A stretch of DNA of 64,000 nt from an uncultured Bacteroidales bacterium (GTDB lineage: Bacteria; Bacteroidota; Bacteroidia; Bacteroidales; FEN-979), in contig CAJBYO010000005.1 of the NCBI GenBank assembly GCA_903959905.1, positions 148,674-212,673 of the forward strand. The letters are read 5' to 3'. Each line of letters starts with the position of its first letter. Positions within the stretch are counted from its first letter, which is position 1. The translations under genes and the position numbers were made by a program. Of the stretch, positions 21,749 to 59,247 are shown one piece after another. The notes under the pieces are model-generated. The model made no database searches. It saw only the letters and a list, made by a program, of their open reading frames with translations, and was not told the origin of the DNA.

Positions 21749-21773
21749 TGCTGAAAAATTCAGCAATTCAGCA
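21749..21773 (+). promoter_or_regulatory. Small hairpin plus duplicated octamer in the 5' leader of the TPR lipoprotein gene
   Basis: tgctgaa-aaa-ttcagca (7-bp stem, 3-nt loop), directly followed by a second copy of attcagca. It has the same word/inverted-word grammar as the larger intergenic arrays. Confidence 0.4.
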
Positions 21774-21832
21774 AATCACTTAATTATCATCAAGACTGAC
21801 CTTAACAGAAAGTACCAATTAAACTGTATTTT

Positions 21833-22444
21833 ATGAAAAAAATTCTTTATCTGGCTGTTGCGCTGGTTTTTATCCTCAGTGCCTGTACTCAAAAAACCCC
21901 AAAAGAGCTCCTTGATTCGGCTGAAGCCAAGGTTAAAGCCGGTGAATTTAAAGAAGCAATTGTTGATTTTGATAAAGCAATTGAATTAGAACCGGGAAAT
22001 ACCCAGGCCCTTTTTCATCGTGGAAACACAAAGACTTGTGTGTCAGACTTCAAAGGCGCAATAGAAGATTATGGGAAAGTGCTCATTTTAGATCCGAAAG
22101 ATGGGAATGCCTACGCCTGCCGTGGAAACTGTAAAAAAATTACAAAGGATTATACAGGCGCAATTATAGAATTTGACAATGCAATGAAATTCAAGGTTAA
22201 TGAACCCGCAAAGGTTTATCAATTAAGGGGCTTCTGTAAAATGCAAACCGGCGATCTTCCTGGTTCGCAGGCAGACCTTGACAAGGCCATTGAACTCAAT
22301 CCAAATTCTGCTGATGCATTTTTATACAGGGGACAGCTGAAAATACAAACCGGCGTGTTACCAGAAGCCTGTGCTGACCTTGCCAAGGCTTCCGGGTTGG
22401 GGCAGAAGGAAGCAGATGACTTGATCAAGAAGCACTGCAAGTAG
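21833..22444 (+). CDS. TPR-repeat lipoprotein
   Basis: Lipoprotein signal MKKILYLAVALVFILSAC, then ~5 TPR-like units (..AIVDFDKAIELEPGNTQALFHRG.., ..DLDKAIELNPNSADAFLYRG..). Confidence 0.8.
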   Translation: MKKILYLAVALVFILSACTQKTPKELLDSAEAKVKAGEFKEAIVDFDKAIELEPGNTQALFHRGNTKTCVSDFKGAIEDYGKVLILDPKDGNAYACRGNCKKITKDYTGAIIEFDNAMKFKVNEPAKVYQLRGFCKMQTGDLPGSQADLDKAIELNPNSADAFLYRGQLKIQTGVLPEACADLAKASGLGQKEADDLIKKHCK

Positions 22445-22699
22445 GGGATTGGATTGGTTCATTATCGAGCGCAGTTAATTACTGTTTTGGTTTTTGATGG
22501 TCAACAGATCAACTAAGAAAGTTGGTTTCTACTGTATTTTTCTACAATGTCCAAAGCATTTCTGCATATTGTTGCCTTTTTAGTGTAAGCATGAAACCTA
22601 TTTTAGGATTTAAGACAAAAAATCACAGGTCATGCATCCCGGAGAATTCTGTGAAATACACTATTTTTACAGCTCATATGAATAAAAGCGGCTAATTGA

Positions 22700-24007
22700 A
22701 TGAATGATACCCGATTAATTGCCTTTTATCTGCCACAGTTTCATCCGATTCCGGAAAACGATGTTTGGTGGGGAAAAGGTTTTACGGAATGGAGAAATGT
22801 GGTTGCCGCCAAGCCTGTTTTCCCGGAACACTATCAGCCTCACTTACCGGCAGATCTGGGTTTTTACGACCTCCGTATACCCGAAGTCCGTGAAGCACAG
22901 GCTCAAATGGCCCGTGATCATGGGATTTACGGTTTCTGTTATTATTTCTATTACTTCAATGGCAAAAGGTTGTTGAACAGGCCATTGGATGAGAATCTTG
23001 CCTCTGGAAAACCGGATTTCCCTTTTTGCATATGCTGGGCCAATGAAAATTGGACCCGGAGATGGGATGGCAACGATTCGCATATCTTAATTGAACAGGT
23101 TCATTCACAGAAGGATGATATTGATTTTATTCATCAACTGATCCCTGTGTTAAAGGACAAGCGTTATATTCGTGTCAACAACAAGCTGTTACTGCTTGTT
23201 TACAGGGTGGATCGCATGCCGGAACCCCTGGAAACAGCCTCAACCTGGCGGGAAATCGTAAAAAAGGAACTCAATGCTGAGTTGTATCTGTGCGCAGTCA
23301 ATAACTTCGTGAAAGATATTGACCCTGTCAAGATAGGGTTTGATGGAACAGTTCAGTTTCCACTCGACTTTCATCCGAGTTGCCGGGTTGATATAGAACG
23401 ATTTGCCCAGGCCAATGAGCTTGATTTCGCAAACATAAAGGATCACTGGATCATTGATTACCCGAGAATAATCCAACAAATGGCCAGCCTGGAAAAACCC
23501 AGATATAAATTTTTCAGAGGGGTCTTTCCATCCTGGGACAATACGCCGAGAAGACAAAATTCCAGTGCGATTTTCATCAATTCTTCCCCCGACCTGTATA
23601 AACTATTTTTAAAGGCAACACTGGCACTTACCCGCGCTGAGCATGCAGGTGATGAACAACTGGTTTTCATTAATGCCTGGAATGAATGGGCAGAAGGAGC
23701 ACATCTGGAACCTGACCAAAAATACGGAATGAGATGGCTGGAAGCCACGAAGGAGGCAATGGATGAGGTTGATGATAAGGCTGATGCGTTGGAAGCACTT
23801 AGATCGCATTGTGGCGAAGACGCACTAAAAGTACCTGGTCTTTCCACACAATCCCAAAATGCACAGTTGCAATTTGAATCTCCTTTGAGTTCAGAAATTG
23901 ATGTAATATTAAATTCCTATACATTCAGGGCAGGTAAGTTGATCCTTTGGTTCCCAATCAGGATTCTCACTCTTTATAAACGGCTAACAAAGAAAAAACA
24001 TGAATAA
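22700..24007 (+). CDS. WbsX-family glycosyltransferase/glycoside-hydrolase-like protein (paralog 1, with C-terminal tail)
   Basis: IAFYLPQFHPIPENDVWWGKGFTEWRNV and CWANENWTRRWDG are the hallmark N-terminal blocks of the WbsX family. It carries an extra ~70-aa C-terminal extension ending NSYTFRAGKLILWFPIRILTLYKRLTKKKHE. Confidence 0.75.
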   Translation: MNDTRLIAFYLPQFHPIPENDVWWGKGFTEWRNVVAAKPVFPEHYQPHLPADLGFYDLRIPEVREAQAQMARDHGIYGFCYYFYYFNGKRLLNRPLDENLASGKPDFPFCICWANENWTRRWDGNDSHILIEQVHSQKDDIDFIHQLIPVLKDKRYIRVNNKLLLLVYRVDRMPEPLETASTWREIVKKELNAELYLCAVNNFVKDIDPVKIGFDGTVQFPLDFHPSCRVDIERFAQANELDFANIKDHWIIDYPRIIQQMASLEKPRYKFFRGVFPSWDNTPRRQNSSAIFINSSPDLYKLFLKATLALTRAEHAGDEQLVFINAWNEWAEGAHLEPDQKYGMRWLEATKEAMDEVDDKADALEALRSHCGEDALKVPGLSTQSQNAQLQFESPLSSEIDVILNSYTFRAGKLILWFPIRILTLYKRLTKKKHE

Positions 24008-26585
24008 GAGGCCCAGGATACTGATTATTTCTTACAACATACCCCGGCCGGATAAAAGTTCGGGAGAACTCCGGTTTGTGGCTATTCTGGATTTGTTATC
24101 CAAATTCTGGGACCTGGATTTTTGTGTGGCCAACTCTCACGCTGAATGGAATGCCACTGAAGAATTGGTTCCTTACATTGAAAAGCTTGAGGCAATGGGC
24201 ATCCGTGTTTACAGGCCTTCAAAGGATGCATTCAGCAGGGCCGTCAATGAAAACCAGTATGCCGGTGGTTATTTTAACCTCTACTGGATTGCCGAGGAGA
24301 TGATGCCCCTGTTTAAATCGGCTCAACCCGGTGCCTTTACGATTGTTGATTCGGTGGATGTTCACTTTGCACGCGAGGCGACACAGGCGAAACTTGGTGC
24401 CATTGAGATGTCAAAGGTTATGCAAACGAAGAAAAGGGAACTCGGTGTTTATAAGGCTGCCGATGTTGCCATTGCCGTGAGTAAGGACGACCTCCATCTG
24501 CTTACTGTTACTGAAGGATTGAAGAATATATTCCTCATTCCAAATATTGTAAGGGAGTTTCCCAGAACCGTGGGGAAACGCAAGCCTGTTGTAGTTTTTA
24601 TTGGAAGTTATGCTTGGTATCCTAACCCGGAAGCGGTTATTTGGTTTACTGAATTGATCTGGCCAGCAATTTATAAATCAACTCCTGAGGCAGAATTTTT
24701 AATTATCGGCAGTGACCCCACGCCGGAAATACTGGCATTGGGCACAGTTCCAGGCGTTAAGGTGTTAGGATATGTTCCTGAAACGAAACCGTACCTTGAA
24801 ATGGCTGCTGTTTCTGTTGCTCCACTCAGGGTGGGCGGGGGTATGAAGGGAAAGGTGAACGAAGCAATGGCCCATGGTATTCCTGTGGTAGCCACCAAAA
24901 TCGGTGCGCAGGGCTTTGAAGCAGTTCATGGGAAACAAATGATGATCACTGATGATCCGGACGAATTTGCCGAATGTGTGACAGCACTTATATCGAATGA
25001 TGCATTGCAGCAGGAAATGGGGCTGGCAGGTCAAAAACTTAATTCGGCCATATGTTCATACCAGGCGGTCAATGAGAAAATCAGAGATCTTGTTATTCAC
25101 TGCAATTCATTGATAACGACGATCCCCATCGTACCTGCTGTGAACTCACCTGTTCCTGAATCAACCAAATTATCCTTTTTCATCAAAGATTTCGGGTATG
25201 CGCTGCAATTGTTGAAAAGGGATGGACTTAGAGAGTTTTTCAAAAGGATGTGGTTATATCTTCATGGACAGCGATTACCGGTTGGTACGAATGATCAGGA
25301 AAAAAAAAAAAAAGAAATAACCAGGATTGAAAAGGCCACTGAGCCTCCTCAATTTTTTGAAACGACCAACCCCAGCTTTGCAAGCATAGAATTTCCAAAG
25401 ATATCCGAGACTCCAACAGTTTCTATCATTATCCCGGTTTATAACCAATGGGATTTTACCTATGCTTGCCTTGACTCTATTCTGAAAAACACCGGGGGCA
25501 TTTCTTACGAGATTATTTTAGCGGATGATAATTCAACAGATGAAACAAAATTTGTTGAACAATCTGTAAAGAACATCCATGTTGTCAGAAATGAAATGAA
25601 CCTTGGATTTCTTTTCAACTGCAACAATGCGGCAAAGTTTGCAAAAGGGAAATTCCTGATTTTTTTGAATAATGACACGCTTGTTCAGCCTGAATGGCTG
25701 AATTGGCTTTTAAAGACCATGGCAGATAATGCCGATGTAGGAATGGCCGGATCTAAATTCATGTTTTCTACCGGAGAATTGCAGGAAGCAGGCGGCATTG
25801 TCTTCACGGATGGTTCAGCAACGAATTATGGCAGATATGACTGGCCCAATGTATCGCACAATAATTACTTAAAGGATGTTGACTATTGTTCAGGCGCTTG
25901 CATTTGCGTACGGCACGAATTATGGCTGAAGGTTGGAGGCTTTGATCCGATCTATTCGCCCGGTTATTATGAGGACACCGACCTTGCAATGAAGATAAGG
26001 TCAATCGGGTACAGGACTGTTTATCAGCCAAAATCGGTGATTATCCATTTTGAAGGGGTTTCACACGGTTCGGATCTTACAACCGGCATCAAGAGCAAGC
26101 AGACTGAAAATCAACATATTTTTTTGAAAAAGTGGAAAAATGAGTTGGAAAAGAATAACTATGCCAGGTACGAGAATTTGTTCAGGGCAAGGGATAAAAG
26201 CAAACACAAGCATGTCGTTCTTCTCATCGATTACTGTGTTCCAACCTGTTCCAGCCAGATTGATAAACAAAAGTATTTCCATATTTTGAATTCTTTGCTG
26301 GAGAAGAGGATGAAAGTCATAATTTTACCTGATAATTTTTATAAAACAGAACCTGAAGTTTCTGACCTGGAACAAAAAGGAATTGAGGTTTTATACGGAG
26401 GGTGGTACCGTGAAAACTGGTGGCTGTGGTTTACTGAAAATTTCGTCAACATTAACACCATCATTTTTATTGATAAGCCAATTGCTGATAAATATATCCC
26501 AATGATCAAGACCATTCCCAGCGCTAAATTTAACATTGAAGTTATCAGGCAAGGAGTTGAATTTGACATCCGGAATATTTTGTAA
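24000..26585 (+). CDS. Three-domain glycosyltransferase: GT4 (N) - Lys-rich linker - GT2 - partial Rossmann (GT-B N-half-like) C-terminal domain
   Basis: GT4 block GGMKGKVNEAMAHGIPVVATKIGAQGF. GT2 blocks VSIIIPVYNQWDFTYACLDSILKNT..EIILADDNSTDET, FLNNDT and YYEDTDL. The C-terminal HKHVVLLIDYCVPT.. echoes the N-terminus RILIISYNIPRPD... The start overlaps the upstream stop by 8 nt. Confidence 0.8.
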   Translation: MNKRPRILIISYNIPRPDKSSGELRFVAILDLLSKFWDLDFCVANSHAEWNATEELVPYIEKLEAMGIRVYRPSKDAFSRAVNENQYAGGYFNLYWIAEEMMPLFKSAQPGAFTIVDSVDVHFAREATQAKLGAIEMSKVMQTKKRELGVYKAADVAIAVSKDDLHLLTVTEGLKNIFLIPNIVREFPRTVGKRKPVVVFIGSYAWYPNPEAVIWFTELIWPAIYKSTPEAEFLIIGSDPTPEILALGTVPGVKVLGYVPETKPYLEMAAVSVAPLRVGGGMKGKVNEAMAHGIPVVATKIGAQGFEAVHGKQMMITDDPDEFAECVTALISNDALQQEMGLAGQKLNSAICSYQAVNEKIRDLVIHCNSLITTIPIVPAVNSPVPESTKLSFFIKDFGYALQLLKRDGLREFFKRMWLYLHGQRLPVGTNDQEKKKKEITRIEKATEPPQFFETTNPSFASIEFPKISETPTVSIIIPVYNQWDFTYACLDSILKNTGGISYEIILADDNSTDETKFVEQSVKNIHVVRNEMNLGFLFNCNNAAKFAKGKFLIFLNNDTLVQPEWLNWLLKTMADNADVGMAGSKFMFSTGELQEAGGIVFTDGSATNYGRYDWPNVSHNNYLKDVDYCSGACICVRHELWLKVGGFDPIYSPGYYEDTDLAMKIRSIGYRTVYQPKSVIIHFEGVSHGSDLTTGIKSKQTENQHIFLKKWKNELEKNNYARYENLFRARDKSKHKHVVLLIDYCVPTCSSQIDKQKYFHILNSLLEKRMKVIILPDNFYKTEPEVSDLEQKGIEVLYGGWYRENWWLWFTENFVNINTIIFIDKPIADKYIPMIKTIPSAKFNIEVIRQGVEFDIRNIL
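25300..25313 (+). repeat. A14 homopolymeric tract inside the inter-domain linker of the three-domain GT
   Basis: Counted directly: ...cagg + 14 a + gaaata, read as CAG GAA AAA AAA AAA AAA GAA = QEKKKKE in frame. Confidence 0.9.
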
Positions 26586-26611
26586 ATTAACCAAACTAAA
26601 CAATCAATAAT

Positions 26612-27712: not shown

Positions 27713-27815
27713 CGTATCACTGGTATAAAATAACCTGATTGCTCCCGGAGAGAGGCTCTGATCTCGGGGAAGTGCAGTTTATATATATCAGGAAAGATAA
27801 AGTAATCGCAGTAAA

Positions 27816-29711: not shown

Positions 29712-29763
29712 CCCTCTATACCGGCAACCTGCAAACTTGTTGTTAGAAAACACACCCTGAACC

Positions 29764-35234: not shown

Positions 35235-36467
35235 ATGAAAATTTTACTGATCAATACATATGATCAACGGGGTGGTGCTGCGAGGGCCACATGGCGGCTT
35301 TTTGAAGGGCTGAAAACCACCGGCAACGAAGTGTATCTGCTTGTCCAGGAAAGGCAGTCGAAGGATCCGATGGTGTTATTGGCCCCGGGGGTGCTGAACC
35401 CTTTCAGACCCTACATTGATTTTGCACTTCCTTTGCTGCAAACCCGCAGGCGTATTATCTTTTCCACCTCCATGATCCCCGATAACATTATCAGCGAGAT
35501 TGACCGCATCAACCCTGATGTGGTTCACCTGAATTGGATTGCCGGCGGATTTATCAAAATTGAGTCGCTTGCCAGGATCGGCAGGCCTGTTATATGGACC
35601 CTCCATGATATGTGGGGATTCACCGGCGGATGCCATTACACAGAGAATTGTACACGGTATATGCAGGAATGCGGTAAATGCCCGGTACTCCATTCGTCGG
35701 GGGAAAATGACCTGAGCCGACGGGTATTCCAAAGGAAATCAAAGGCCTATGCACAGATAGCGAATCTGACTGTCACCACCCCAAGCGAGTGGCTTGCGCA
35801 ACAGGTAAGAGAAAGTCCGTTGCTCGGCAACCGGAACGTTGTGGTTGTTCCCAACGGTCTTGACACTGAAAAGTTTACATCATCAGGGAAGGAGGAAGCC
35901 AGGAGAAGGCTGAATCTTGATAAAGCTAAAAAGATTATCCTGTTCGGAGCGATCCGGGCCACCGAAACACCATTGAAAGGGTTCGCCTTGCTGGTTCAGG
36001 CACTTAAATTGCTGAATCGGGAGGATTACCAGCTGGTTGTTTTTGGTTCATCCTCGGCAAAAAATACAGATGTTTCAGGTTTGGACATCAGGTTCACCGG
36101 GCATGTTGCCAGTCATGAAACACTTATTGACCTTTACTCGGCAGCAGATGTGGTGGCAGTTCCTTCCATGCAGGAGGTGTTCGGGCAGTCCGCCTCAGAA
36201 GCCATGGCCTGCAGCACCCCGGTGGTTGCCTTTGACTGCACCGGATTGCGCGATATTGTAGTTCACCTTGAAACCGGCTACCTGGCAGAGCCCTTCCGCC
36301 CTGAAGACCTGGCAGCCGGCATTGAATGGGTGCTTGCTGATGAGCCCCGACGTGTTTCATTGGGATTAAATGCCAGGAAGCGTGTGCTTGAAAAGTTTGA
36401 TTACAAAGTAGTTGCAGAAAAAATGACAAGGATATACCGGGAGGCCATGAATGGAACGAACCTGTAA
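35235..36467 (+). CDS. Glycosyltransferase family 4 (GT-B, group 1)
   Basis: MKILLINTYDQRGGAARA.. N domain. The C domain has AADVVAVPSMQEVFGQSASEAMACSTPVVAFDCTGLRDIV (E-x7-E region). Confidence 0.8.
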   Translation: MKILLINTYDQRGGAARATWRLFEGLKTTGNEVYLLVQERQSKDPMVLLAPGVLNPFRPYIDFALPLLQTRRRIIFSTSMIPDNIISEIDRINPDVVHLNWIAGGFIKIESLARIGRPVIWTLHDMWGFTGGCHYTENCTRYMQECGKCPVLHSSGENDLSRRVFQRKSKAYAQIANLTVTTPSEWLAQQVRESPLLGNRNVVVVPNGLDTEKFTSSGKEEARRRLNLDKAKKIILFGAIRATETPLKGFALLVQALKLLNREDYQLVVFGSSSAKNTDVSGLDIRFTGHVASHETLIDLYSAADVVAVPSMQEVFGQSASEAMACSTPVVAFDCTGLRDIVVHLETGYLAEPFRPEDLAAGIEWVLADEPRRVSLGLNARKRVLEKFDYKVVAEKMTRIYREAMNGTNL

Positions 36468-37251
36468 ATTTTCAATTGTCACCCCCTCTTATAACCAGGC
36501 TGGGTTTATTGAACGCACCATCCACAGTGTGGCGGATCAACAGGTTGATTTTTCCGTCGAGCATATTGTGGTTGACGGCGCCTCTACGGACGGCACACTC
36601 GATATTCTTAAACAGCATTCCGGCCGCATCCATCTTATTTCGGAACCGGATAACGGGATGCAGGATGCACTGAACAAAGGATTTTCAAAGGCTGCAGGTG
36701 AACTTGTCGGATGGCTGAACTCTGATGACATTTACCTTCCAGGGACTTTGCAGCGGGTTGCAACCTATTTTGACAGTCACCCTGATTGCCTTTGGCTTTA
36801 CGGAAATTGCCGCATGATCGATGAGCAGGACAGGGAGGTAAGGAAATGGATAACGGCTTACAAGAACCGGTCGGCAAGGAAATACAGGTATGAAAAGCTT
36901 TTGGTTGAGAACTTCATCTCACAGCCTGCGGTGTTTATGCGAAGGGAAGCCCTCGTAAAAGCCGGCCCCATTGATACGGGGCTCCCCACCGCCATGGATT
37001 ATGATTTATGGATCAGGCTGGCAAAACTGGGCAGGCCGGGATATATTGATGATGATCTGGCGTGTTTCAGGGTGCATGGGGAGTCAATCAGTTCAAGGAG
37101 TTATCGGGAGCAATTTGACGAGCAATACCGCATCCATCAGAAGTATGACCATAACCGGAGGAGGCTGTTAATGCACCGGGTCAACAATTTTATCATTGTA
37201 CTTACCTATTCAGTCATAAAAAAAATACAGGCTGTTTTCGGAAAAGATTGA
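36451..37251 (+). CDS. Glycosyltransferase family 2
   Basis: KFSIVTPSYNQAGFIERTIHSVADQ..EHIVVDGASTDGT and NSDDIY. Confidence 0.8.
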   Translation: MERTCKFSIVTPSYNQAGFIERTIHSVADQQVDFSVEHIVVDGASTDGTLDILKQHSGRIHLISEPDNGMQDALNKGFSKAAGELVGWLNSDDIYLPGTLQRVATYFDSHPDCLWLYGNCRMIDEQDREVRKWITAYKNRSARKYRYEKLLVENFISQPAVFMRREALVKAGPIDTGLPTAMDYDLWIRLAKLGRPGYIDDDLACFRVHGESISSRSYREQFDEQYRIHQKYDHNRRRLLMHRVNNFIIVLTYSVIKKIQAVFGKD

Positions 37252-37260: not shown

Positions 37261-37350
37261 CCTCTGTGGCCCTCTGTGACTCCTCTGTGAACCTCTGTGT
37301 AACAATTTATGACACAGAGGTTCACAGAGAAGACACAGAGAAACACGGAG
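37261..37350. repeat. Word-array hairpin: 4 direct CCTCTGTG words (10-11 nt spacing), then 4 inverted CACAGAG(G) words
   Basis: ctctgtg starts at 37262, 37272, 37283 and 37293. There is a perfect 13-bp inner stem, tgaacctctgtgt (37288-37300) / acacagaggttca (37312-37324), with an 11-nt loop. Pairing extends outward with mismatches to ~40 bp. Confidence 0.85.
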
Positions 37351-43948: not shown

Positions 43949-44380
43949 ATGGCAACTGGAGTTAACAAGGTGATTCTGATCGGCAATCTGGGACGGGATC
44001 CGGAGGTTCAAAATTTCGAAAACGGTGTAAAAAAGGCGGCTTTTACGCTCGCAACCACCGAAGCTTACAAGGGAAAAGACGGAGAAAGGGCGACGCATAC
44101 CGAGTGGCATAACATTGTGATGTGGCGTGGCCTTGCTGATGTAGCTGAACGCTTCCTGAAAAAAGGCAGCACGATCTACGTTGAAGGCAGAATCCGCAAA
44201 CGCGAATATGAAGACAAGGAGGGCCAGAAAAAGTTTATTTATGAGATTCTGGGCGATGTGATGCAGATGCTTGGCGGTGGCCCGCGCAAAGATGAGGGCA
44301 CCGGTGCCCCGGTGGCGGGAGAGATCCACAAAGATGAAGGTTTGCCGGCGAATACTCCGGATGACGATCTGCCGTTCTAA
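43949..44380 (+). CDS. ssb: Single-stranded DNA-binding protein
   Basis: OB-fold N-terminus VNKVILIGNLGRDPEV, TEWHNIV, and the acidic C-terminal tip DDDLPF. Confidence 0.95.
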   Translation: MATGVNKVILIGNLGRDPEVQNFENGVKKAAFTLATTEAYKGKDGERATHTEWHNIVMWRGLADVAERFLKKGSTIYVEGRIRKREYEDKEGQKKFIYEILGDVMQMLGGGPRKDEGTGAPVAGEIHKDEGLPANTPDDDLPF

Positions 44381-44418
44381 TAGAAAGTAGCGAAGTGGCG
44401 AGGTGGCGAAACAGTGAA
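44379..44418 (+). repeat. Tandem octamer word array (5 units, in phase) starting inside the ssb stop codon
   Basis: aatagaaa gtagcgaa gtggcgag gtggcgaa acagtgaa, strict 8-nt phase. Shares the exact word gtagcgaa with the array at 59200-59247. Confidence 0.75.
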
Positions 44419-48441: not shown

Positions 48442-49584
48442 TCAGGAATCCTCCCGGTTCATGACATCTATCTGGCGCTGTATGCCTTCCTCATGAACAT
48501 CTTCCAGCAATTTCAGGATAAATTCACGGCTTAAACCCAGTCTGATCCCGTTCTCAATGCGGTCCTGCGTTAGCTGGCTCCATCTTTTCAACTGCAGGAT
48601 CGTAATTTTGTTCAGCTTTTTATAGAGTCCGATCTCTTCAATTACATTCATCCTTCTCGCCAGGATATCAATCAGTTCTTCGTCGAGCTTGTCAATTTCC
48701 GAGCGCAATTCTTCCAGTTTTGAGGAGAAACCACTGTTGTCGGATTCCTGCCGGATGATCAGCTTATCAACGAATTCCTGAAGCTGGGCCGGTGTAACCT
48801 GCTGGTTTTTATCCGTCAGCGCCCTGGAAGGGTTGCAATGGGCCTCCACCATCAGCCCGTTCATTTCAAGGTCGAGGGCCTTTTGCATGGTGCTGTGCAG
48901 CAATTCCCTGTTTCCGCAGATATGACTGGGGTCGACCAGGATAGGCAGTTCGGGGTATAGTCGTTTTAATTCAATGGGAATTTCCCACATGGGGGCATTC
49001 CTGTATGGCGACCGGTTGAAGAATGAAAATCCGCGATGGACCGCGATCAGCTTGGTTTGTCCCATCCTGTTCAGGCGCTCAATGGCCCCCAGCCAGGTTT
49101 TGAGGTCGGGGTTGAGCGGATTTTTGATCATCACCGGGATTTCACGGTTGCCAATGGCTTCCCCGATCTCCTGAACGGAGAACGGATTGACGACCGTGCG
49201 GGCACCGATCCACAGGATGTCGATGCCATGATCAAGTGCTTCCTGCACGTGTTTGGGGTGTGCTACCTCTACGGTAACGAGCAGCCCCGTTTGTTCCCTG
49301 ACTTTCTGAAGCCATTTGAGTCCCTTGGTGCCAACCCCTTCAAAGGCACCGGGCCGGGTTCTCGGCTTCCAGATTCCTGCCCGGAATACTTTCACCTGGG
49401 GGATGGAAGCAAGCCCGAAAGCCGTTTCCATGACCTGCTCTTCCGTTTCGGCACTGCAAGGACCTGCAATGATCAACGGAACAGATTGGGCTGGAAGCCA
49501 TTCTGCAAGAGGGGTTATATTGAGCGTGGATGCCATTTGCGGCAAAGGTAAGGAATTCAGCTTCGCCAGAATATCAATTTCCAC
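48442..49584 (-). CDS. Bifunctional 3-deoxy-7-phosphoheptulonate (DAHP) synthase / chorismate mutase
   Basis: KDO8PS-like type I-beta DAHPS core (IIAGPCSAETEEQ, VFRAGIWKPRT, DPSH). The C-terminal chorismate mutase type II helices include LRSEIDKLDEELIDILARRMNV. The start may be the internal ATG at 49536 (MASTLNI..), which removes the overlap with the upstream gene. Confidence 0.85.
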   Translation of the reverse strand: MEIDILAKLNSLPLPQMASTLNITPLAEWLPAQSVPLIIAGPCSAETEEQVMETAFGLASIPQVKVFRAGIWKPRTRPGAFEGVGTKGLKWLQKVREQTGLLVTVEVAHPKHVQEALDHGIDILWIGARTVVNPFSVQEIGEAIGNREIPVMIKNPLNPDLKTWLGAIERLNRMGQTKLIAVHRGFSFFNRSPYRNAPMWEIPIELKRLYPELPILVDPSHICGNRELLHSTMQKALDLEMNGLMVEAHCNPSRALTDKNQQVTPAQLQEFVDKLIIRQESDNSGFSSKLEELRSEIDKLDEELIDILARRMNVIEEIGLYKKLNKITILQLKRWSQLTQDRIENGIRLGLSREFILKLLEDVHEEGIQRQIDVMNREDS

Positions 49585-50045
49585 AGATTGGAAAACACTT
49601 TAAGTGCAGAAACAACCATGCCTATGATGAAAGCAATCGGAAGGAACCAGTCAAGCCAGAACAACCCGTGAAAATGGGTGAAATCAAACGGGAAAATGTA
49701 AAACAGCACCATCTGCGTTACGAAACTGGCTGATTCCATCACAATCTGTGAAAAATAGCGTATTGGCGCCAGTCCCGACATGAACATCAGGGCATTTCCG
49801 GCGATCTGAACAATGATGTTCACGTTGAGAATCCAGATCACAACAGAAAAATTATTCTTGATAAAGCCTACGTCCCAGTTCTGAACATTGTTGACGATCC
49901 AGAGGAATAAAAGATTGAAAATGATGGACCCGATGTATTCGCCTTGTCGCGACTTCGCGGCTTTTTCCTTATGCCAGTGCCTTTTGCCATAAGCATCGGC
50001 TTTTTGTGCCCAATTGGGCATGTTTTCGCGGTGATGGTGGTTCAT
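49557..50045 (-). CDS. Hypothetical 4-TM membrane protein
   Basis: 162 aa with a His-rich N-terminus (MNHHHRE) and four hydrophobic segments. No family recognised. Confidence 0.5.
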   Translation of the reverse strand: MNHHHRENMPNWAQKADAYGKRHWHKEKAAKSRQGEYIGSIIFNLLFLWIVNNVQNWDVGFIKNNFSVVIWILNVNIIVQIAGNALMFMSGLAPIRYFSQIVMESASFVTQMVLFYIFPFDFTHFHGLFWLDWFLPIAFIIGMVVSALKVFSNLWKLIFWRS

Positions 50046-50127: not shown

Positions 50128-50215
50128 AAACCACTAAGGCACGGAGGGCACTAAGAACCACTAAGATATATAATGCCCTTAGTGTTTCTTAGTGAACTTA
50201 GTGCCTCAGTGGTTT
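50128..50215. repeat. 88-nt near-perfect word-array palindrome (CACTAAG words / CTTAGTG inverted words)
   Basis: The outer 15-bp stem aaaccactaaggcac (50128-42) / gtgcctcagtggttt (50201-15) has 1 mismatch. The inner 17-bp stem cactaagaaccactaag (50149-65) / cttagtgtttcttagtg (50178-94) has 1 mismatch. There is a 6x6 internal loop and a 12-nt apical loop. Confidence 0.85.
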
Positions 50216-50234
50216 AAAATTCCTGACATTTCAG

Positions 50235-50242
50235 TAAATTTG
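50235..50242 (+). promoter_or_regulatory. Putative -7 promoter box (TAnnTTTG) for asnS
   Basis: TAAATTTG at 50235-50242, 22 nt upstream of the ATG at 50264. Confidence 0.45.
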
Positions 50243-50263
50243 CGGATTCAATAACATATATCC

Positions 50264-51661
50264 ATGGAACATTTAAGAAGAAACAAAATCATTGATTTGC
50301 TGAAATCAAAGGATTTTGGCATTGAAGTTTTAGTCAAAGGCTGGGTCAGGACCAAGAGGGGAAATAAGAACATCAATTTTATCGCGATCAACGACGGATC
50401 AGTGATCCATCAGATCCAGGTTGTGGTGGAAGTGGCAAACTTTCCCGAGGAAGATCTGAAGCTGATCACCACCGGAAGTTGCATTGCCGTGAAAGGCATC
50501 CTTGTGGAATCGATGGGACAAGGTCAGAGCGTTGAAATACAGGCAAAACACATTGAGGTTTACGGCACTGCCGATCCGGAAACATATCCGTTGCAGAAAA
50601 AGGGACACAGCCTTGAATTTCTGCGTGAGATAGCCCATCTCCGGCCACGAACCAATACATTTGGCGCCGTGCTGCGCATTCGCCACGCCATGGCTTATGC
50701 CATTCATAAATATTACAACGACCAGGGATTTTTCTACATACACGCCCCGATTATTACTGGTTCGGATGCAGAGGGAGCCGGTGCCATGTTCCGCGTGACG
50801 ACGCTGGACGACAAGAACCCGCCGCTGCTGCCTGACGGACATGTTGACTATAGCCAGGATTTCTTCGGCAAAGAGACAAAACTGACGGTTAGCGGACAGC
50901 TGGAAGGTGAACTTGGTGCCATGGCACTTTCGCTGGTGTATACTTTCGGCCCAACATTCAGGGCTGAAAACTCAAATACGCCCCGACACCTTGCTGAGTT
51001 CTGGATGATTGAGCCGGAGATGGCCTTCTACGATATCCACGACAACATGGACCTTGCCGAAGACTTCCTGAAGTACCTTATTCAGTATGCGCTTGATCAT
51101 TGTTATGACGATCTTGATTTCCTTAACAACATGTATGACAACGAACTGATTGACCGTTTGAAACAGGTCGTCAGCGGGAAATTTGAACGGTTGTCGTATA
51201 CCGAAGCAGTTGAGATTCTGATGGCATCCGGACAAACCTGGGAGTTCCCGGTTGGATGGGGAACCGACCTCCAGGCGGAGCATGAGCGCTACCTGGTGGA
51301 GAAACATTTTGGCAAACCGGTTATCCTTACCGGCTACCCCAAAGACATCAAGGCGTTCTACATGAAGATGAACGAGGATGGCAAAACCGTGCGTGCCATG
51401 GATGTGTTGTTCCCGAAGATCGGAGAGATCATTGGCGGCAGCCAGCGTGAAGAGAACCTGGACGCCCTGCTGAAAAGGATCCATGAAATGAATATTCCGG
51501 AAAAGGATGTGTGGTGGTACCTCGACACCCGAAAATTCGGAACTGCTCCCCATGCCGGCTTCGGCCTTGGATTTGAACGGTTGATCCTGTTTGTTACCGG
51601 TATGTCAAATATCCGTGATGTGATTCCATTCCCAAGGACGCCGAAGAACGCTGAGTTTTAG
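50264..51661 (+). CDS. asnS: Asparagine--tRNA ligase
   Basis: 465 aa. OB anticodon-binding N-terminus and class IIb core ([36 protein letters not shown]). C-terminal end [10 protein letters not shown]. Confidence 0.95.
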
Positions 51662-51854
51662 GGACGGGTGGACGGGCGGACGAGTGGACTGGCGGACGAG
51701 CGGACAAGCGGACAAGTGAACGGGTAAACAGGGGTGCAAGTGGGCAGGTGAAAAAGCAGGCAGGTGACCAAGTGAACAGGAGAACATAGTTTGATACGCC
51801 GGTAAGCTCGTCCGCTTGTCCGCCAGTCCGCTTGTCCACTTGTCCGCTCGTCCG
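51662..51854. repeat. Octamer word array: 16 in-phase direct units (GGACNNGY-like) + 17-nt spacer + 6 in-phase inverted units
   Basis: Direct units, 51662-51789: ggacgggt ggacgggc ggacgagt ggactggc ggacgagc ggacaagc ggacaagt gaacgggt aaacaggg gtgcaagt gggcaggt gaaaaagc aggcaggt gaccaagt gaacagga gaacatag. Inverted units, 51807-51854: ctcgtccg cttgtccg ccagtccg cttgtcca cttgtccg ctcgtccg. The array starts on the nucleotide after the asnS TAG. Confidence 0.9.
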
Positions 51855-51940
51855 CCACATTTCCGGAACAGAGATTTTTTATCGGAAGAATTAGTCCCTG
51901 TCCCGAATTTTTAGTAATTTAGCCTAAAGAATAACAAGAG

Positions 51941-54705: not shown

Positions 54706-54715
54706 AAGAATGGAA

Positions 54716-55615
54716 TTATTTCAAATCAAATGAACCGGTGCCGATTTCCTTGTCATCGGCAAACACCGTGACAATATATTTCCCTTTCATGGCGGGTTTG
54801 TCGTTGTCTTTCTTGGTCCAGTTTACGCAAACATTAAGTGCTTTCCCCTGGTAGTCAATATCTTCCCTGAGTGAATATGGCAGCGTTTGCCCGTTAAAAT
54901 CAAAGGTGTCGTACTTGCTTTTGATGACAACAATATTATCGGGGCGTACTAAACGGATGTAGATGTTCTTTTTTCCGGTGGGCACAAGGGGGTTGTCGCC
55001 GATGGTAAAGCAAACCCTGATCCTGTCGGTCCGGCTTGCCTTATCTGTGACTTGTTCCTTTGAGCCGCCGGATTTAAGTTTCAGCGGGGTGGCTGTAACG
55101 TCGTAGGCTTTGATGAAGGCGGCCTGGTTCATCTTTTCTTTCAGTTCTTCCTTGTCCTTCATCAGCGACTGGTTCCGGTTTTGCTCGGTTTTCACTACCT
55201 GGCGGATCCGGTCGTTTTCGGCTGTGAGTTCACGGTTCACCGTATAAAGTGAATCCATCTGGTGGACATAACCCTGGGCTACCTTCTGCAGGCGCTCAAA
55301 TTTCTTATGGATAGTGTTGTAATCCCATTGATTATCCAGCAGTTTTTTGATTTCCAGCGCATTCACCTGGATAAGACTGTCCTTGACTTTCAACGTGTCG
55401 GATAAGGCACCATAGGCTGCCTTGATCTTGTTGTGTTCAGACATCAGTGAGTCAAGATTGTGCTGAAGCGCGAGTTTCTCGGTTTCTTTTTCTTTTACCA
55501 GTTTCATCATTTGTGACCGCTGGATGAAAAGCCAGAAAAGAAGAACCAGTAAAAGGAGGGCCAGAATTGCAAGGTAAATCTTGTAGTTGCGGGATGAAGA
55601 GTTTTGATCTTCCAT
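54716..55615 (-). CDS. Hypothetical membrane-anchored coiled-coil protein with C-terminal beta domain
   Basis: One N-terminal TM (IYLAILALLLLVLLFWLFI), ~130 aa of heptad-like helix, then a ~110-aa beta-rich C-terminus. No family recognised. Confidence 0.5.
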   Translation of the reverse strand: MEDQNSSSRNYKIYLAILALLLLVLLFWLFIQRSQMMKLVKEKETEKLALQHNLDSLMSEHNKIKAAYGALSDTLKVKDSLIQVNALEIKKLLDNQWDYNTIHKKFERLQKVAQGYVHQMDSLYTVNRELTAENDRIRQVVKTEQNRNQSLMKDKEELKEKMNQAAFIKAYDVTATPLKLKSGGSKEQVTDKASRTDRIRVCFTIGDNPLVPTGKKNIYIRLVRPDNIVVIKSKYDTFDFNGQTLPYSLREDIDYQGKALNVCVNWTKKDNDKPAMKGKYIVTVFADDKEIGTGSFDLK

Positions 55616-55650
55616 GTGAAAGTTAATTTTCCTGAATTAAGGCGCAAAGA

Positions 55651-55692
55651 TAAAACAAAAAGAGGATTCTGCCGTGGGCAAATCCTCTTTTT
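55651..55692 (-). terminator. Rho-independent terminator for the C69 peptidase gene
   Basis: A 12-bp perfect stem aaaaagaggatt (55657-68) / aatcctcttttt (55681-92), extendable by tgcc/ggca. On the minus strand the stem is followed by tttttgtttta. Confidence 0.7.
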
Positions 55693-55704
55693 GAATAATT
55701 GTCT

Positions 55705-55749
55705 GCATTGCTTACATTGCGTGCATTGCTTACATTGCGTGCATTCGGT
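55705..55749. repeat. Tandem nonamer word array (5 units, or 2.5 x 18 nt), 1 nt after a minus-strand stop codon
   Basis: gcattgctt acattgcgt gcattgctt acattgcgt gcattcggt. No inverted arm. It lies between the C69 stop (55751-53) and the terminator hairpin. Confidence 0.85.
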
Positions 55750-55750
55750 T

Positions 55751-57427
55751 CTAGTGTCCCGACGCCCCAACCTGCTTGATCACATCGCCATGCTGTTTCA
55801 CGATCTCTTTCAGCCACCATTCGGGATAACCGGGTTGTGAAGGCATTACCGGCGTGTTGTAAGGATTGGTTTCAAATTTTCCATCTTTTTCCTTCTTGAT
55901 GTTTCCGTCAATATATTTCACCAACAGGTACTGATAGAGTTCCTGCCAGCGCTTTACAGTTGCCTGGCCGGTATTGACAGAATAATCTGTCAGATATTTT
56001 ACAGCAGCTTCCTTGTCATTCTTTAAAAGTTCTGCAGCTTTTTTATCCATGAGGGCAGTTTCGGCAACATATTTCTGTTCCAGTTCAGACTGAACAGGCT
56101 GAATATCTTTGATCATGTAGTTGTACTTTGTATAGGCCCAGTTGGAAACCATGCTGAATGTCCAGAAAGCGGAGGTGGGAGAAAAATGAAGCATGTCGCC
56201 GTTGCCGACTTTGTAGGCTTCCGGGATAGTCGTCATACAGGTATACATTGGAGAATATACCATGGTGTAGGTGTCGTCCACACCAAACCAGAGAATTCCT
56301 CCGATAGGATCAGGCATCCAGCTGCGTGACTGGGCAACAAAGACAAAACCTGTTTGCTGGGTGGAGGTGGCGCGTTCATGCACATAGGCAATACTGTCTA
56401 CTTTCAGTGTCATCGGGCGCCAGCGGTAAGGGCATTCAAACGGACCGGCGCCGATATCTTTGGTCATGTCCATTTTGGTTCCTTCATAATGGTCGCGCAT
56501 GAGGTTCATCACGTCAATAGCGCTGATCTTTTTATCCGGTTTAATCCACAATGGCATGCGGTTGGTGGTATATCCCCAGTTTCCTTTGGTGAGGTGGCCC
56601 ATGGCGTAGTCCTGGTATTGCCCCATGTTTGAATTCACCCTGTTGAACATGGACCAGACGCGGGCTTCGCAGGCACGGGCACCGCTGAAGGAAACCGGTG
56701 CATAGGTGTCGGAAAAACTGAACTCAGCATCTTTGCCGTCAAAATAGCCTTTTGAACGGGCGAACGTGATAACATCCTTTGCATAGATGCAATTTTCAGG
56801 ATCGTTCAGTGGGAAAGTGGTGATACGGGCCTGGTTTGCATGTCCGCATACATATCCGTCTGGGATGCGCAGGGCGACCCATACAGCACCAACCTGGCCT
56901 TCGCCTTTGCCAATCATTTCCAGGATCCATGCTTCATTCGGATCAGAAATGGAGAATGATTCGCCTTCGCTGGCATATCCGTATTTTTCGGTCAGTTCAC
57001 CAAAAACCTTGATGGCTTCACGCGCATTTTTAGCACGCTGAAGTGTGATGTAAATGAGGGAACCGTAATCAACGATGGCACCTTTCTGGGTGAACAGCTC
57101 TTCCCGTCCGCCAAATGTGGTTTCTCCGATTGCCAGCTGAAATTCGTTCATATTGCCGACAACATTGTAGGTGTGATTCACCTGGGGAATCTTGCCAAGC
57201 GGTTTCCCGGTGTCCCATTCCGTAACATCCAGCATGGAACCTGCAGGCCAGTCGCGGGCGGGCCAGTAGTATAATTCGCCATAAAGTGTGTGAGAATCAG
57301 CAGAATAGGTGATCATCACAGAACCATCAGTTGTGGATCCTTTGGTAAAGATAAAGTTCGTACAGGCGATGGAGTGGTAGCTGAAACCCGCAAGTAACAG
57401 CAACAGGCTAAACAGGGTTTTACGCAT
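55751..57427 (-). CDS. Peptidase family C69 dipeptidase (secreted)
   Basis: Signal peptide, then the N-terminal nucleophile context SIACTNFIFTKGSTTDGS. The 558-aa length is typical of C69. Confidence 0.8.
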   Translation of the reverse strand: MRKTLFSLLLLLAGFSYHSIACTNFIFTKGSTTDGSVMITYSADSHTLYGELYYWPARDWPAGSMLDVTEWDTGKPLGKIPQVNHTYNVVGNMNEFQLAIGETTFGGREELFTQKGAIVDYGSLIYITLQRAKNAREAIKVFGELTEKYGYASEGESFSISDPNEAWILEMIGKGEGQVGAVWVALRIPDGYVCGHANQARITTFPLNDPENCIYAKDVITFARSKGYFDGKDAEFSFSDTYAPVSFSGARACEARVWSMFNRVNSNMGQYQDYAMGHLTKGNWGYTTNRMPLWIKPDKKISAIDVMNLMRDHYEGTKMDMTKDIGAGPFECPYRWRPMTLKVDSIAYVHERATSTQQTGFVFVAQSRSWMPDPIGGILWFGVDDTYTMVYSPMYTCMTTIPEAYKVGNGDMLHFSPTSAFWTFSMVSNWAYTKYNYMIKDIQPVQSELEQKYVAETALMDKKAAELLKNDKEAAVKYLTDYSVNTGQATVKRWQELYQYLLVKYIDGNIKKEKDGKFETNPYNTPVMPSQPGYPEWWLKEIVKQHGDVIKQVGASGH

Positions 57428-57461
57428 AAGGGAGTGTTTATGGAGTTATGGTTATGATTAA

Positions 57462-57510
57462 AGCTGTTAGCTGTTAGCTGTTAGCATTCAGCATTCAGCA
57501 TTCAGCATTT
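57462..57510. repeat. Tandem heptamer word array with a word switch: AGCTGTT x3 then AGCATTC x3 (+AGCATTT)
   Basis: agctgtt agctgtt agctgtt agcattc agcattc agcattc agcattt, strict 7-nt phase. It lies between the C69 ATG (57427) and its putative -7 box (57529-36), so it is probably in the 5' leader. Confidence 0.9.
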
Positions 57511-57528
57511 TGCTTTAGTTTCATTTTT

Positions 57529-57536
57529 CAAAATTA
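57529..57536 (-). promoter_or_regulatory. Putative -7 promoter box (TAnnTTTG on minus strand) for the C69 peptidase gene
   Basis: The plus strand reads caaaatta, which is TAATTTTG on the minus strand, ~100 nt upstream of the ATG at 57427. Confidence 0.3.
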
Positions 57537-57622
57537 CAAAAATTTTCCTGACCATCATGCTCCCCTCCGACGGCAGAATATCCTGTCGTATCTCCTGCAG
57601 ATGAATAATAGCGGAAAAACAG

Positions 57623-57630
57623 TAACTTTG
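57623..57630 (+). promoter_or_regulatory. Putative -7 promoter box (TAnnTTTG)
   Basis: TAACTTTG at 57623-57630, 23 nt upstream of the ATG at 57653. Confidence 0.45.
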
Positions 57631-57652
57631 TAATGTCGTTGACGCATACCAT

Positions 57653-58420
57653 ATGAAAAAGACAACTTTATTTTTGTTCTTGCAATTCACTTTTGTGGTG
57701 GTTTTTGCACAAAATTCCGCCCCGGATCCAGCTAATCCTGTTAACCACCGCATGGGGCTGGAAGCATCAGCAGGCTATTCTGTGGCACTCGGGGCCTATT
57801 CCTCACATGACAATGGGAATGAAAAGTCCGGTTATGCTCATAATGGCTGGCAGATGCAGGTCACCTTTGACTGGATGGGGAAAAAGGATTTTGGCATGGC
57901 CCTGCAGTATACCTTTCAGCGAAACCAGGTAAATGGTCTGTGCAACCTTATTTATCCGAATGGAACGCCCGATACAACGGTTACAAATCCCTGGTCAAAC
58001 CATTACCTGATGGCAGGGCCGGTATTTATGAAGGCCCTCGGGAAACTGCACCTGGATGCCAAACTTTTAGGAGGTGTAATCGTTTCTTCAGGATCCGGTT
58101 TTGACACACGGAATCCGACCGATACGGCAGTGATCAGCTACAGCAAGAATATTGCCACCGGTTTCGGGTTTCAGCTTTCGGGCGGTGTTGGCTATAACTT
58201 CACCCGTCATTTTGCACTCAAATTCAACCTGGCATTGCTTGGCGGCTGGCCTGGGAAGAACAGGCAATATCCGTCACAACTTGTGGGTACCGCTTTTTAT
58301 AAGGATCCTGTTACCGGAATTGAATATCAAAAACCTATCTATTCAGCTCCTGTGGAGTATGATATTAAGAAAGTCGTGATGACCCTGAACCCTTCACTTG
58401 GGGTTGTATTCAGGTTCTAA
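57653..58420 (+). CDS. Outer-membrane beta-barrel protein (porin-family-like)
   Basis: Signal peptide MKKTTLFLFLQFTFVVVFAQ, alternating amphipathic beta-strand pattern, C-terminal ..GVVFRF. Confidence 0.6.
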   Translation: MKKTTLFLFLQFTFVVVFAQNSAPDPANPVNHRMGLEASAGYSVALGAYSSHDNGNEKSGYAHNGWQMQVTFDWMGKKDFGMALQYTFQRNQVNGLCNLIYPNGTPDTTVTNPWSNHYLMAGPVFMKALGKLHLDAKLLGGVIVSSGSGFDTRNPTDTAVISYSKNIATGFGFQLSGGVGYNFTRHFALKFNLALLGGWPGKNRQYPSQLVGTAFYKDPVTGIEYQKPIYSAPVEYDIKKVVMTLNPSLGVVFRF

Positions 58421-58437
58421 TTTTATAACTGCTGCTC

Positions 58438-59199
58438 ATGTTCCGTAAAACGCTGACTATTATTTCTGCCCTGTTGCTCACGGTTTCATCCCTGTTTGCA
58501 CAGCTGAACATCCATGACTCCATCATTTCCACCCCGCTCATCTATGCCACCTACAGCTACCAGTTTCCGGGAGGTGACCTGGCAAAGCAGTTTGGAAGCA
58601 ACTCTAGCATCGGCGGCGGACTGTTGTTTAAAACCCGGCACAACTGGCTGTTCGGGGCAGAAGGAAATTTCATGTTCGGGCAATCCGTTAAAAACAGCGA
58701 CTCCCTGCTGAAATCCATCACCACGCATGAGGGCTTTGTCATCGACGCCAACGGGTATTATGCCGATCTTGTCTATTATGAACGGGGATTCAGTTTCCTT
58801 GTGAAGTTCGGGAAGGTGATCCCGTTACTCGCCCCGAACCCCAACTGCGGATTTACTTTGATTGCCGGAGCTGGCTATATCCAGGATAAAATTCGCATTC
58901 ATAATCCCGGAAATACTGCACCGCAGCTGCTGGGGGATTATAAGAAAGGCTATGACCGGTTAAACGGTGGAATCGTGGCTACCGGTTCGCTTTCATACAT
59001 GTACCTGAGCAACACCCGCCTGCTGAACTTTTCTGTCGGATTTGAATTCATGCAGGCGTGGACCAACCCCTATCGTGAAATTGATTTCGGCACCGGACTG
59101 AAGGACACCGGGAAACTGAGCAGCCAGTTTTATGGGATAAAAGTGTGCTGGATCATTCCATTGTATAAGAGGATGCCGAAGGAGTTCTATCTGTACTAA
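58438..59199 (+). CDS. Putative outer-membrane beta-barrel protein
   Basis: Signal peptide MFRKTLTIISALLLTVSSLFAQ and Gly/aromatic-rich alternating strands. Tandem to the preceding OMP gene. Confidence 0.5.
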   Translation: MFRKTLTIISALLLTVSSLFAQLNIHDSIISTPLIYATYSYQFPGGDLAKQFGSNSSIGGGLLFKTRHNWLFGAEGNFMFGQSVKNSDSLLKSITTHEGFVIDANGYYADLVYYERGFSFLVKFGKVIPLLAPNPNCGFTLIAGAGYIQDKIRIHNPGNTAPQLLGDYKKGYDRLNGGIVATGSLSYMYLSNTRLLNFSVGFEFMQAWTNPYREIDFGTGLKDTGKLSSQFYGIKVCWIIPLYKRMPKEFYLY

Positions 59200-59247
59200 A
59201 TGGTGTATTGGTGAGATGGTGAAATGGTGAAATAGCGAAGTAGCGAA
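59200..59247 (+). repeat. Tandem octamer word array (6 units) filling the whole intergenic space between a stop codon and the waaA ATG
   Basis: atggtgta ttggtgag atggtgaa atggtgaa atagcgaa gtagcgaa in strict 8-nt phase. The stop TAA is at 59197-99 and the waaA ATG is at 59249. Confidence 0.85.

Follow-up and report, generated by a model that had tools for sequence, protein, structure and literature searches.

Intergenic arrays of short tandem words in an uncultured Bacteroidales genome: a known but unexplained kind of bacterial repeat

What are the runs of short tandem words that occupy intergenic spacers in a 64,000-nucleotide (nt) stretch of the genome of an uncultured freshwater Bacteroidales bacterium, and why do several of them touch a stop codon? 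The stretch, called the window below, is C5:148674-212673 of the draft genome G000 (4.93 Mb, 47% GC, 104 contigs); positions are those of the window unless a contig is named. An earlier, sequence-only reading had listed eight such sites, in which words follow one another head to tail and are often followed by the same words inverted. The observation is real, non-random and correctly located, and the kind of repeat is known but unexplained. The arrays probably belong to the class of bacterial intergenic tandem repeats described as long simple sequence repeats (LSSR) or short tandemly repeated repetitive sequences (STRR). In the preferred reading they are selfish or neutral DNA that arises by insertion plus slippage and is filtered by selection to harmless positions.

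The sites, together with one neighbouring terminator, are listed here with the intervals called by Tandem Repeats Finder (TRF).

21749-21778, unstranded: marginal member; a weak mini-array of AATTCAGC/TTCAGCA that includes a small hairpin and lies in a region of divergent promoters
37261-37350, unstranded: foldback of four CCTCTGTG-type words, a 13-nt AT loop and four CACAGAG words (TRF 37261-37299 and 37312-37350)
44379-44418, plus strand: (T/G)(A/G)GCGAA-type octamers in a direct array that separates the ssb stop from gldD (TRF 44385-44410)
50128-50215, unstranded: foldback of ACCACTAAGG-CACGGAGGG-CACTAAGAAC-CACTAAG, a loop and the mirror image (read directly in the sequence)
51662-51855, unstranded: long foldback of GGACNNGY octamers (TRF 51662-51724 and 51806-51855)
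55704-55749, minus strand: direct array of TGCATTGCK nonamers (TRF 55704-55745)
57462-57510, unstranded: heptamers in two arrays that abut each other (AGCTGTT x3.4, AGCATTC x3.9), within a divergent spacer (TRF 57462-57509)
59198-59248, plus strand: direct array of AAATGGTG / AATAGCGA octamers that occupies the entire spacer from the stop of gene 58438-59199 to the Kdo-transferase ATG at 59249
55655-55693, minus strand: terminator of the C69 peptidase gene, of the ordinary type with hairpin and T-run, located downstream of the nonamer array and outside the repeat system

TRF and direct reading bear out all eight arrays where they had been placed, the one at 21749 being marginal. TRF scores were 38-84 for seven of the eight noted sites, and the 50128-50215 hairpin was seen by reading the sequence. 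The sites fall into three folding groups. The foldbacks are very stable (z -9 to -11), with a minimum free energy (MFE) of -56 kcal/mol (z -11) at 37261, -48 kcal/mol (z -10.6) at 50128 and -113 kcal/mol (z -9) at 51662, where the periodicity fades toward the loop. Structure is weak at 21749-21773 (TRF 2.8 copies, score 37; MFE -12.5, z -4.5) and at 57462 (TRF 100% matches; z about -4). The three direct arrays are unstructured, namely the hairpin-less array at 44379 (z -1.4), the nonamer array at 55704, first listed from 55705 (z -0.8), and the octamer array at 59198, first listed from 59200 (z +0.5). The 21749 site has a single occurrence in the genome (BLAST), as has the 44379 array as a sequence, and the words of the 57462 arrays are common to about four loci.

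The four stop-codon contacts that had been described are all correct by coordinates. The ssb stop (44378-44380) is overlapped by the first unit of the 44379 array, with the SSB tail DDDLPF intact; the 51662 foldback begins 0 nt after the asnS stop (51659-51661); the outer-membrane protein (OMP) gene 58438-59199 runs directly into the octamer array; and the nonamer array, ending at 55745-55749, lies 1 nt from the stop (55751-55753) of the minus-strand C69 peptidase gene (55751-57427). The 37261 foldback begins 10 nt past the stop of the GT2 gene 36451-37251, and the 50128 foldback sits between the divergent promoters of asnS and gene 49557-50045. The gene names SSB, GldD, RecJ, peptidase C69 and Kdo transferase hold. 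So does the statement that the arrays are not CRISPR loci (short palindromic repeats, clustered and regularly interspaced), which combine 25-40-nt repeats with unique spacers of similar size; here the units of 7-10 nt stand head to tail. A scan of the window at the Rfam gathering thresholds matched no family.

To place the eight sites in their genome, arrays were called by TRF at a period of 5-12 and at least 2.8 copies, and genes by a crude codon-usage caller, the stop positions of which are exact and the starts approximate; start codons are left out of all claims. The chance level for array number was taken from five dinucleotide shuffles of the same intergenic spacers, and words were counted as identical up to rotation and strand. 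Of 1119 arrays, 841 are intergenic, in a genome of which intergenic DNA makes up 11%. Such a genome-wide scan had been proposed as a check, and it confirmed the intergenic excess, with 902 TRF rows in real spacers versus 18-37 in the shuffled ones. The commonest periods among intergenic arrays are 7 (363 arrays) and 8 (276 arrays). An array is present in about 22% of spacers. Convergent spacers have the highest density (2.7/kb), ahead of tandem (1.7-1.9/kb) and divergent ones (1.0/kb). For about 27% of arrays there is an inverted partner, in most cases at a distance of 8-100 nt, and 73% have none.

The vocabulary is limited. Across 843 arrays 242 words are used, 149 of them once only, the most frequent being GACGGGT (67 occurrences), AAAATCTGCG (31) and AAATGGTG (25). 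The 364 heptamer arrays draw on 72 words, where about 1170 classes are possible. The earlier impression that each locus uses its own words thus stands within the window and fails genome-wide, since 66% of arrays are built from a word present at five or more loci. More than 99% of arrays enclose no gene. Same-word inverted arrays bracketing a whole housekeeping gene (nfo, mrp, obg, rbfA) were found in 12 cases, which is not significant (permuted mean 7.3, maximum 13).

The three stable hairpins of the window are members of dispersed families, found by BLAST at about 22 (37261), 34 (50128) and 45 (51662) loci of the genome. Copies of the 37261 family are 85-88% identical over their full length, arms and loop, and the 51662 word family includes arms around a PF05635 gene on contig C29. 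The family of the 50128 foldback, named here after its word CACTAAG, has a fixed arm consisting of ACCACTAAGG CACGGAGGG CACTAAGAAA CACTAAG, and its mirror image. It comprises 56 arms, with 18 full elements and 20 solo arms. Full elements carry four words per arm and span 85-323 nt overall; their arms of about 37 nt are 91% complementary, forming terminal inverted repeats, and their loops of about 10-110 nt are unrelated between copies. In other families the loops are conserved in size and sequence, as for CGCAGAGA (32-33 nt) and CTCTGTG (10-13 nt). The arms are direct word runs that start with ACCAC or have no fixed head, and are not self-complementary. Examined for a target-site duplication, 13 of 16 full CACTAAG elements have a run of the same base, A or T, on both sides, which looks like insertion into homopolymer runs, unlike a stem extended by A...T; the sole clean empty-site case, on contig C47, has inverted A/T flanks. 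Outer units of hairpin arms had been expected to be the more uniform; outer and inner arm units showed 2.56 and 1.81 mismatches per unit, a trend in uniformity that is opposite to expectation or no trend at all, array edges being a confounding factor.

A flank common to arrays in general was sought by flank-flank BLAST and rejected. Many of the matches were unmasked degenerate units and family loops, and this result led to the dispersed families described above. A separate observation concerns the CTCTGTG words: at C73:238-570 of G000, arms of this type enclose about 250 nt of highly self-complementary sequence without an obvious open reading frame (ORF), the whole having an MFE of -140 kcal/mol over 333 nt.

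The orthologous spacers of related species, L-numbered loci and G-numbered genomes that are congeners of G000, show how such junctions change. asnS is 81-94% identical in at least 40 species genomes of the genus, and the nearest asnS outside it is 78% identical. As the sequence-only reading had suggested looking for, unit numbers change at the C69 peptidase and OMP-kdtA junctions, and words change at the asnS, OMP-kdtA and C25 junctions. Downstream of asnS, the GGACNNGY hairpin of G000 has counterparts made of other words: direct GTAAACAG units in L081, CAGGGTGA followed by GTGACGC in L085, a CAAAATGG/CCATTTTA hairpin in L086 and GGTCAAGT-type hairpins in L091 and L093. The same junction is empty in L082 and L090 and holds right-arm remnants in L083 and L088. 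The OMP-kdtA spacer is 1 nt long in G002 (TAGAATG); it contains TAGCGAA-type arrays of 6 units in the window, 7 in L081 and at least 5 in L087, and is filled with other words in L083 (GGACAGGY) and L085 (GGGTAACA). In the C69 peptidase spacer, the same nonamer word is repeated 5 times here, about 10 times in L087 and 4 times in L092; a different word, TCATTCG, occurs in L085, and L081 and L083 have no array. The 50128 site has orthologous copies or remnants in L081, L090, L082 and L088.

Two further junctions lie outside the window. A convergent spacer at C47:147876 contains a 112-nt CACTAAG-family hairpin in G000 and measures about 20 nt, without a hairpin, in 10 congeners. At the C25:61474-63045 junction, where arrays were gained repeatedly, the ancestral protein end reads ...QDKGAW(K/R)(K/R)x. 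The spacer is 0-15 nt long, or stop and start overlap, in four species, and five different word arrays are present in five others: (GTGACNG)x13 in G000, GTGACGC x4 in G016, GGGACAAG and AATTTGT in G005, GGGTAACA x8 in G338, and GCTGGTAA with further ones in G014. In G000 and G338 it is the array that encodes the final 3-5 residues of the protein and its stop. In locus L122 (G013 C89:97486-97846), the orthologue of the C25 gene has no stop and is open into the downstream gene (863 amino acids), either a natural fusion or a sequencing error.

Families also differ in number between species. The arm ACCACTAAGGCACGGAGGGCACTAAG, with CACGGAG as second word, has 49 copies in G000 and 0-6 in each of 39 congeners, the versions of which mostly carry CACTAAG or CACTGAG as second word. 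The CACTAAG-family arm was found in one of 300 other sampled Bacteroidota genomes, and the family is therefore lineage-specific. Across the order, arrays are patchy; the majority of the 80 loci sampled are free of them, and a small number of lineages match or exceed the density seen here. Of 41 congener words, 14 match the G000 vocabulary exactly. Next to the 50128 foldback, about 25 nt upstream of asnS (window 50216-50263; loci L081-L097), stands the motif TTCAGTAAATTTGC, which is conserved across the genus and matches the -7 promoter type of Bacteroidota, TAnnTTTG.

The contact with stop codons is likewise a property of the whole genome. Of all array edges, 19% have a stop within 2 nt, versus 5.1% (maximum 7%) in 200 random placements; in convergent spacers alone the share is 22.6% versus 5% by chance. 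In abutting arrays, the words contain a stop triplet (TAA, TAG or TGA) in 73.5% of cases in sense and in 14.9% in antisense, and the corresponding values for distant arrays are 31% and 34%. Neither 7 nor 8 is divisible by 3, so that a stop-bearing word gives stops in all frames and an array of such words can abut a gene, or take the place of a C-terminal tail that is dispensable, without harm. An array in the opposite orientation would extend the protein by a long tail and so would be lost. For 82 of 181 abutting arrays, the stop codon of the gene doubles as the first periodic stop of the array and recurs one period later. The last codons are often encoded by the array, as in proteins that end ...GVTGDA or ...VGDR at the stop, and non-triplet arrays inside ORF 3' ends number only 36. 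Some contacts keep the native end, such as DDDLPF for ssb and ...AEF for asnS, and the all-frame-stop rule therefore covers most of the excess, not all of it. The stop-codon contact is real and is largely explained by array orientation.

The arrays come in two forms: foldbacks, with two inverted arms of about four or more words each and a variable loop, and solo arms or direct arrays from the same limited vocabulary. A junction first receives its element or array in a discrete insertion, the source of the copy being another place in the genome, as the empty sites in relatives show. The array would then gain or lose units by replication slippage, for which the different unit numbers between species argue; loops of 7-8 nt are poorly recognised by mismatch repair. 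Finally it decays by deletion, and remnants of this kind are seen. Families may burst in a single species, as the ACCACTAAGGCACGGAGGGCACTAAG arm did, and copies would persist only where they are harmless and so accumulate at gene 3' ends. The sequence-only reading had proposed local slippage or template switching as the source of the arrays. The slippage part of this proposal stands, given the unit numbers at the C69 peptidase and OMP-kdtA junctions, and a purely local origin does not, in view of the shared words, the near-identical 40-nt arms at 49-56 sites and the filled and empty sites.

That every array formed where it now stands, through slippage after a chance local duplication and with inverted copies made by template switching, without movement between loci, is very unlikely and already largely refuted. 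It would account for the changes in unit number at orthologous arrays and for the 149 single-occurrence words, and slippage is the explanation that Mrazek 2007 proposed for the heptamer excess, as summarised in PMC4679880. It does not account for the small number of heptamer words relative to the possible classes, for 40-nt arms that are about 92% identical at some 50 sites, or for arrays of 50-130 nt in junctions with an ancestral spacer of 0-20 nt that use words common elsewhere in the genome. A role at RNA 3' ends had been put forward as well. Inverted arrays, folded into hairpins, would halt transcription or keep out 3' exonucleases with no need of a U-tract, and direct arrays would have a related role in the 3' untranslated region. 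This is unlikely, and termination without a U-tract and mRNA 3' protection gained no positive support from the tests made. The remark that most arrays lack a T-tract holds genome-wide: three of 26 hairpins in tandem spacers have at least five T in the next 8 nt, with an equal count on the antisense side, so that these hairpins do not show the GC-rich stem with immediate U-tract of intrinsic terminators. Arrays that do not touch the coding sequence are oriented at random with respect to the gene, most arrays are without an inverted partner, three arrays of the window are unstructured, and the sites at 50128 and 57462 lie between divergent promoters. Pairing between the arms of a copy is 91.3% versus 91.5% after partner shuffling (348 of 500 shuffles at least as high), and no compensatory change between the arms of a copy was seen in this test. 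The 55655-55693 hairpin, which is bidirectional (A and T runs) and lies between the C69 peptidase gene and the promoter of the next gene, is conserved in L081, L083 and L097, including relatives that lack the nonamer array; here it lies downstream of that array, which is therefore not what terminates the C69 peptidase gene. Moreover, congeners manage without an array at the same junctions. A 3'-end role would be in keeping with the great stability of the foldbacks (-48 to -113 kcal/mol) and with Xanthomonas, where transcripts end or start at such repeats above controls (PMC4692102). An effect of 3' hairpins on RNA, if any, would be secondary and is unproven.

There is also only a slim chance that the words are protein-binding sites, for nucleoid proteins, for a global regulator as proposed for Geobacter or for PF05635 proteins, and that the arrays are kept as multi-site platforms. 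The limited vocabulary and the fixed build of the arms, in which about four words are spaced 8-10 nt apart and the loop is free, would suit binding, the same build has been read as regulator sites in G. metallireducens (PMC2700814), and four of the seven PF05635 genes of the genome lie between inverted arrays, each with a different major word. Orthologous junctions with different words or none show that there is no conserved gene-specific regulation, the position of arrays relative to promoters is not fixed, and PF05635 copy number does not track array density in 30 sampled genomes. Several observations weigh against the preferred explanation, insertion and slippage under selection for harmless sites. 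Ordinary terminators are found in 11% of array-bearing spacers versus 22%, half as frequent beside arrays, as a 3'-end function would have it; insertion into the T-runs of terminators would produce this deficit as well. The peak of array density in convergent spacers would fit a 3'-end function too. At an old orthologous site the arms are near the family consensus, which calls for gene conversion or selection. Loops that are unrelated between copies, as in the CACTAAG family, are unusual for transposable elements of the miniature inverted-repeat type (MITEs). Finally, no transposase or other mobilising enzyme was identified for the word arrays; no parent insertion sequence with the same ends as the arms was seen in a search that was not exhaustive.

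The four enclosed PF05635 genes lie directly between inverted arrays of 4-22 units, their major words being GTGACGG, GGACAAGT, TTTAAGT and GTGACAA, and two further PF05635 genes adjoin CGAATATG and CGATTG words. It is conceivable, though a long shot, that these genes, which encode Avd/S23p-like four-helix-bundle proteins, and the arrays form a partnership like that of repetitive extragenic palindromic (REP) sequences with REP-associated tyrosine transposases (RAYTs). The word family around each paralogue would be bound by it or spread with its help, the hundreds of foldbacks and solo arrays that lack a gene being non-autonomous copies. Among the 30 other Bacteroidota genomes (samples of 6.6-21 kb, most 19-21 kb), copy number had no clear relation to array density, and the two samples with the densest arrays had no PF05635 copy above the cut-off. 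If the partnership were true, it would assign a role to a very widespread family of proteins whose function is unknown, and would explain what generates the long-known heptamer repeats of bacteria.

RAYT genes as mobilisers of the word arrays were considered and rejected, as none of the four PF01797 (RAYT-like Y1 transposase) genes is flanked by inverted word arrays. Two of them (G000 C55:416-868 and C50:55381-55833) are flanked by arrays of an unrelated palindrome repeat, GCCCTGAAAGGGC, a separate coexisting REP system; of the remaining two, one has a single nonamer array about 130 nt upstream and one has no such repeat. On the 2.3-kb contig C96 of G000 (4-225, 1609-2127), a partial PF05635 gene, a AATGTAGGC nonamer array and a Y1 transposase-like gene are found together.

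IS110 elements are known to target REPs, and a member of this insertion sequence family (PF01548 and PF02371, 484 amino acids) is intact in G005 C54 (L105:364-1818). The 3' end of the element joins the CACTAAG arm, always cut after ACCACTA, at ten or more contig ends:

IS110-arm joins in G000: starts of contigs C6, C9, C13, C15, C34, C92 and C97; ends of C18, C19 and C73

In G005 the end of the element abuts a CGCAGAG-word hairpin at the matching position. The IS110-family element seems to use the outer end of the arms as its target, thereby breaking the assembly; at least ten contig ends of G000 lie in or beside word arrays.

The tandem heptanucleotide repeats of Calothrix PCC 7601 are known as STRR. 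Contrary to the earlier statement that no formal description of such elements was known, similar repeats are described by Aklujkar 2009 (PMC2700814), Rehm 2015 (PMC4692102) and MacGregor 2015 (PMC4679880). In Geobacter metallireducens, four tandem octamers or five tandem heptamers form a site, several word families exist in dozens of copies, sites are paired on opposite strands at a variable distance, and transposons are inserted nearby (PMC2700814). These sites were designated 'putative global regulator binding sites' of classes 1-3 and four-heptamer elements, a regulator reading made without a test (PMC2700814). The foldbacks of the CACTAAG and CTCTGTG families are built in the same way: four words make an arm, arms pair in inverted orientation at a distance that varies, and copies are many. 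The phylum and the words differ, and insertion polymorphism, a species burst and the stop-orientation rule are added here.

The heptamer arrays of Xanthomonas (GGGAATC) and Nostoc PCC 7120 (GGGGA(C/T)T) are 89-93% intergenic, form 70-75 inverted pairs able to fold into stem-loops, have a strong bias to adjoin or overlap a stop codon, and vary in length and sequence between close species; in Xanthomonas, transcripts start or stop at the repeats more often than at controls (PMC4692102). Each of those genomes has one G-rich, quadruplex-capable word, whereas the 242 words found here are mostly not quadruplex-capable. As the Xanthomonas and Nostoc words contain no stop triplet, all-frame stops can explain at most part of the stop proximity in those genomes. 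Mrazek, Guo and Shah 2007, as summarised in PMC4679880 and PMC4692102, reported a lineage-patchy excess of intergenic repeats with units of 5-11 nt (LSSR), heptamers being commonest, and proposed slippage. The present arrays share the following features of the LSSR and STRR: an excess of tandem 5-11-nt units over composition, a mostly intergenic location, a prevalence of heptamers and unstable unit numbers. The surveys, as far as the summaries convey them, deal with direct arrays, and not with dispersed foldback families, insertions or a PF05635 link. Direct TAACTGA repeats are found in marine Beggiatoaceae, some cyanobacteria and five Bacteroidetes, including a Paludibacter (MacGregor 2015, PMC4679880). 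They too are intergenic heptamers with stops in three frames in forward orientation and only brief overlap of gene ends; they consist of a single word mostly just upstream of start codons, unlike the many words that mostly follow stops here.

Like REPs, their paired form (REPIN) and MITEs, the arrays comprise short inverted repeats between genes, with tens of copies that occur both alone and in pairs, bursts in single species and use as IS110 targets, and the terminal inverted repeats recall MITEs in particular. In contrast to REPs and REPINs, the arms are not imperfect palindromes of 20-40 nt, have no GTAG/CGTC head and are without a cognate RAYT. The PF05635 genes inside long inverted arms at four loci resemble the intervening sequence of 23S rRNA, which carries a PF05635/S23p ORF in its stem, sits in helix 25 or 45 and is excised by RNase III, but these four loci and the window sites lie between protein genes and not in 23S rRNA.

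Repeats of heptamers and octamers between genes have been on record since 1990, and no origin or function is generally accepted for them. Three testable constraints on any explanation come from this genome: insertions are drawn from a genome-wide vocabulary, stop contact follows from all-frame stop content, and hairpins are not maintained by compensatory change. In practice, word arrays break assemblies, displace predicted stop and start codons and produce false ORF extensions, and they change fast enough for strain typing. Two experimental handles are offered by the genome itself, namely the PF05635 genes inside the largest hairpins and the IS110-family element that targets the arms.

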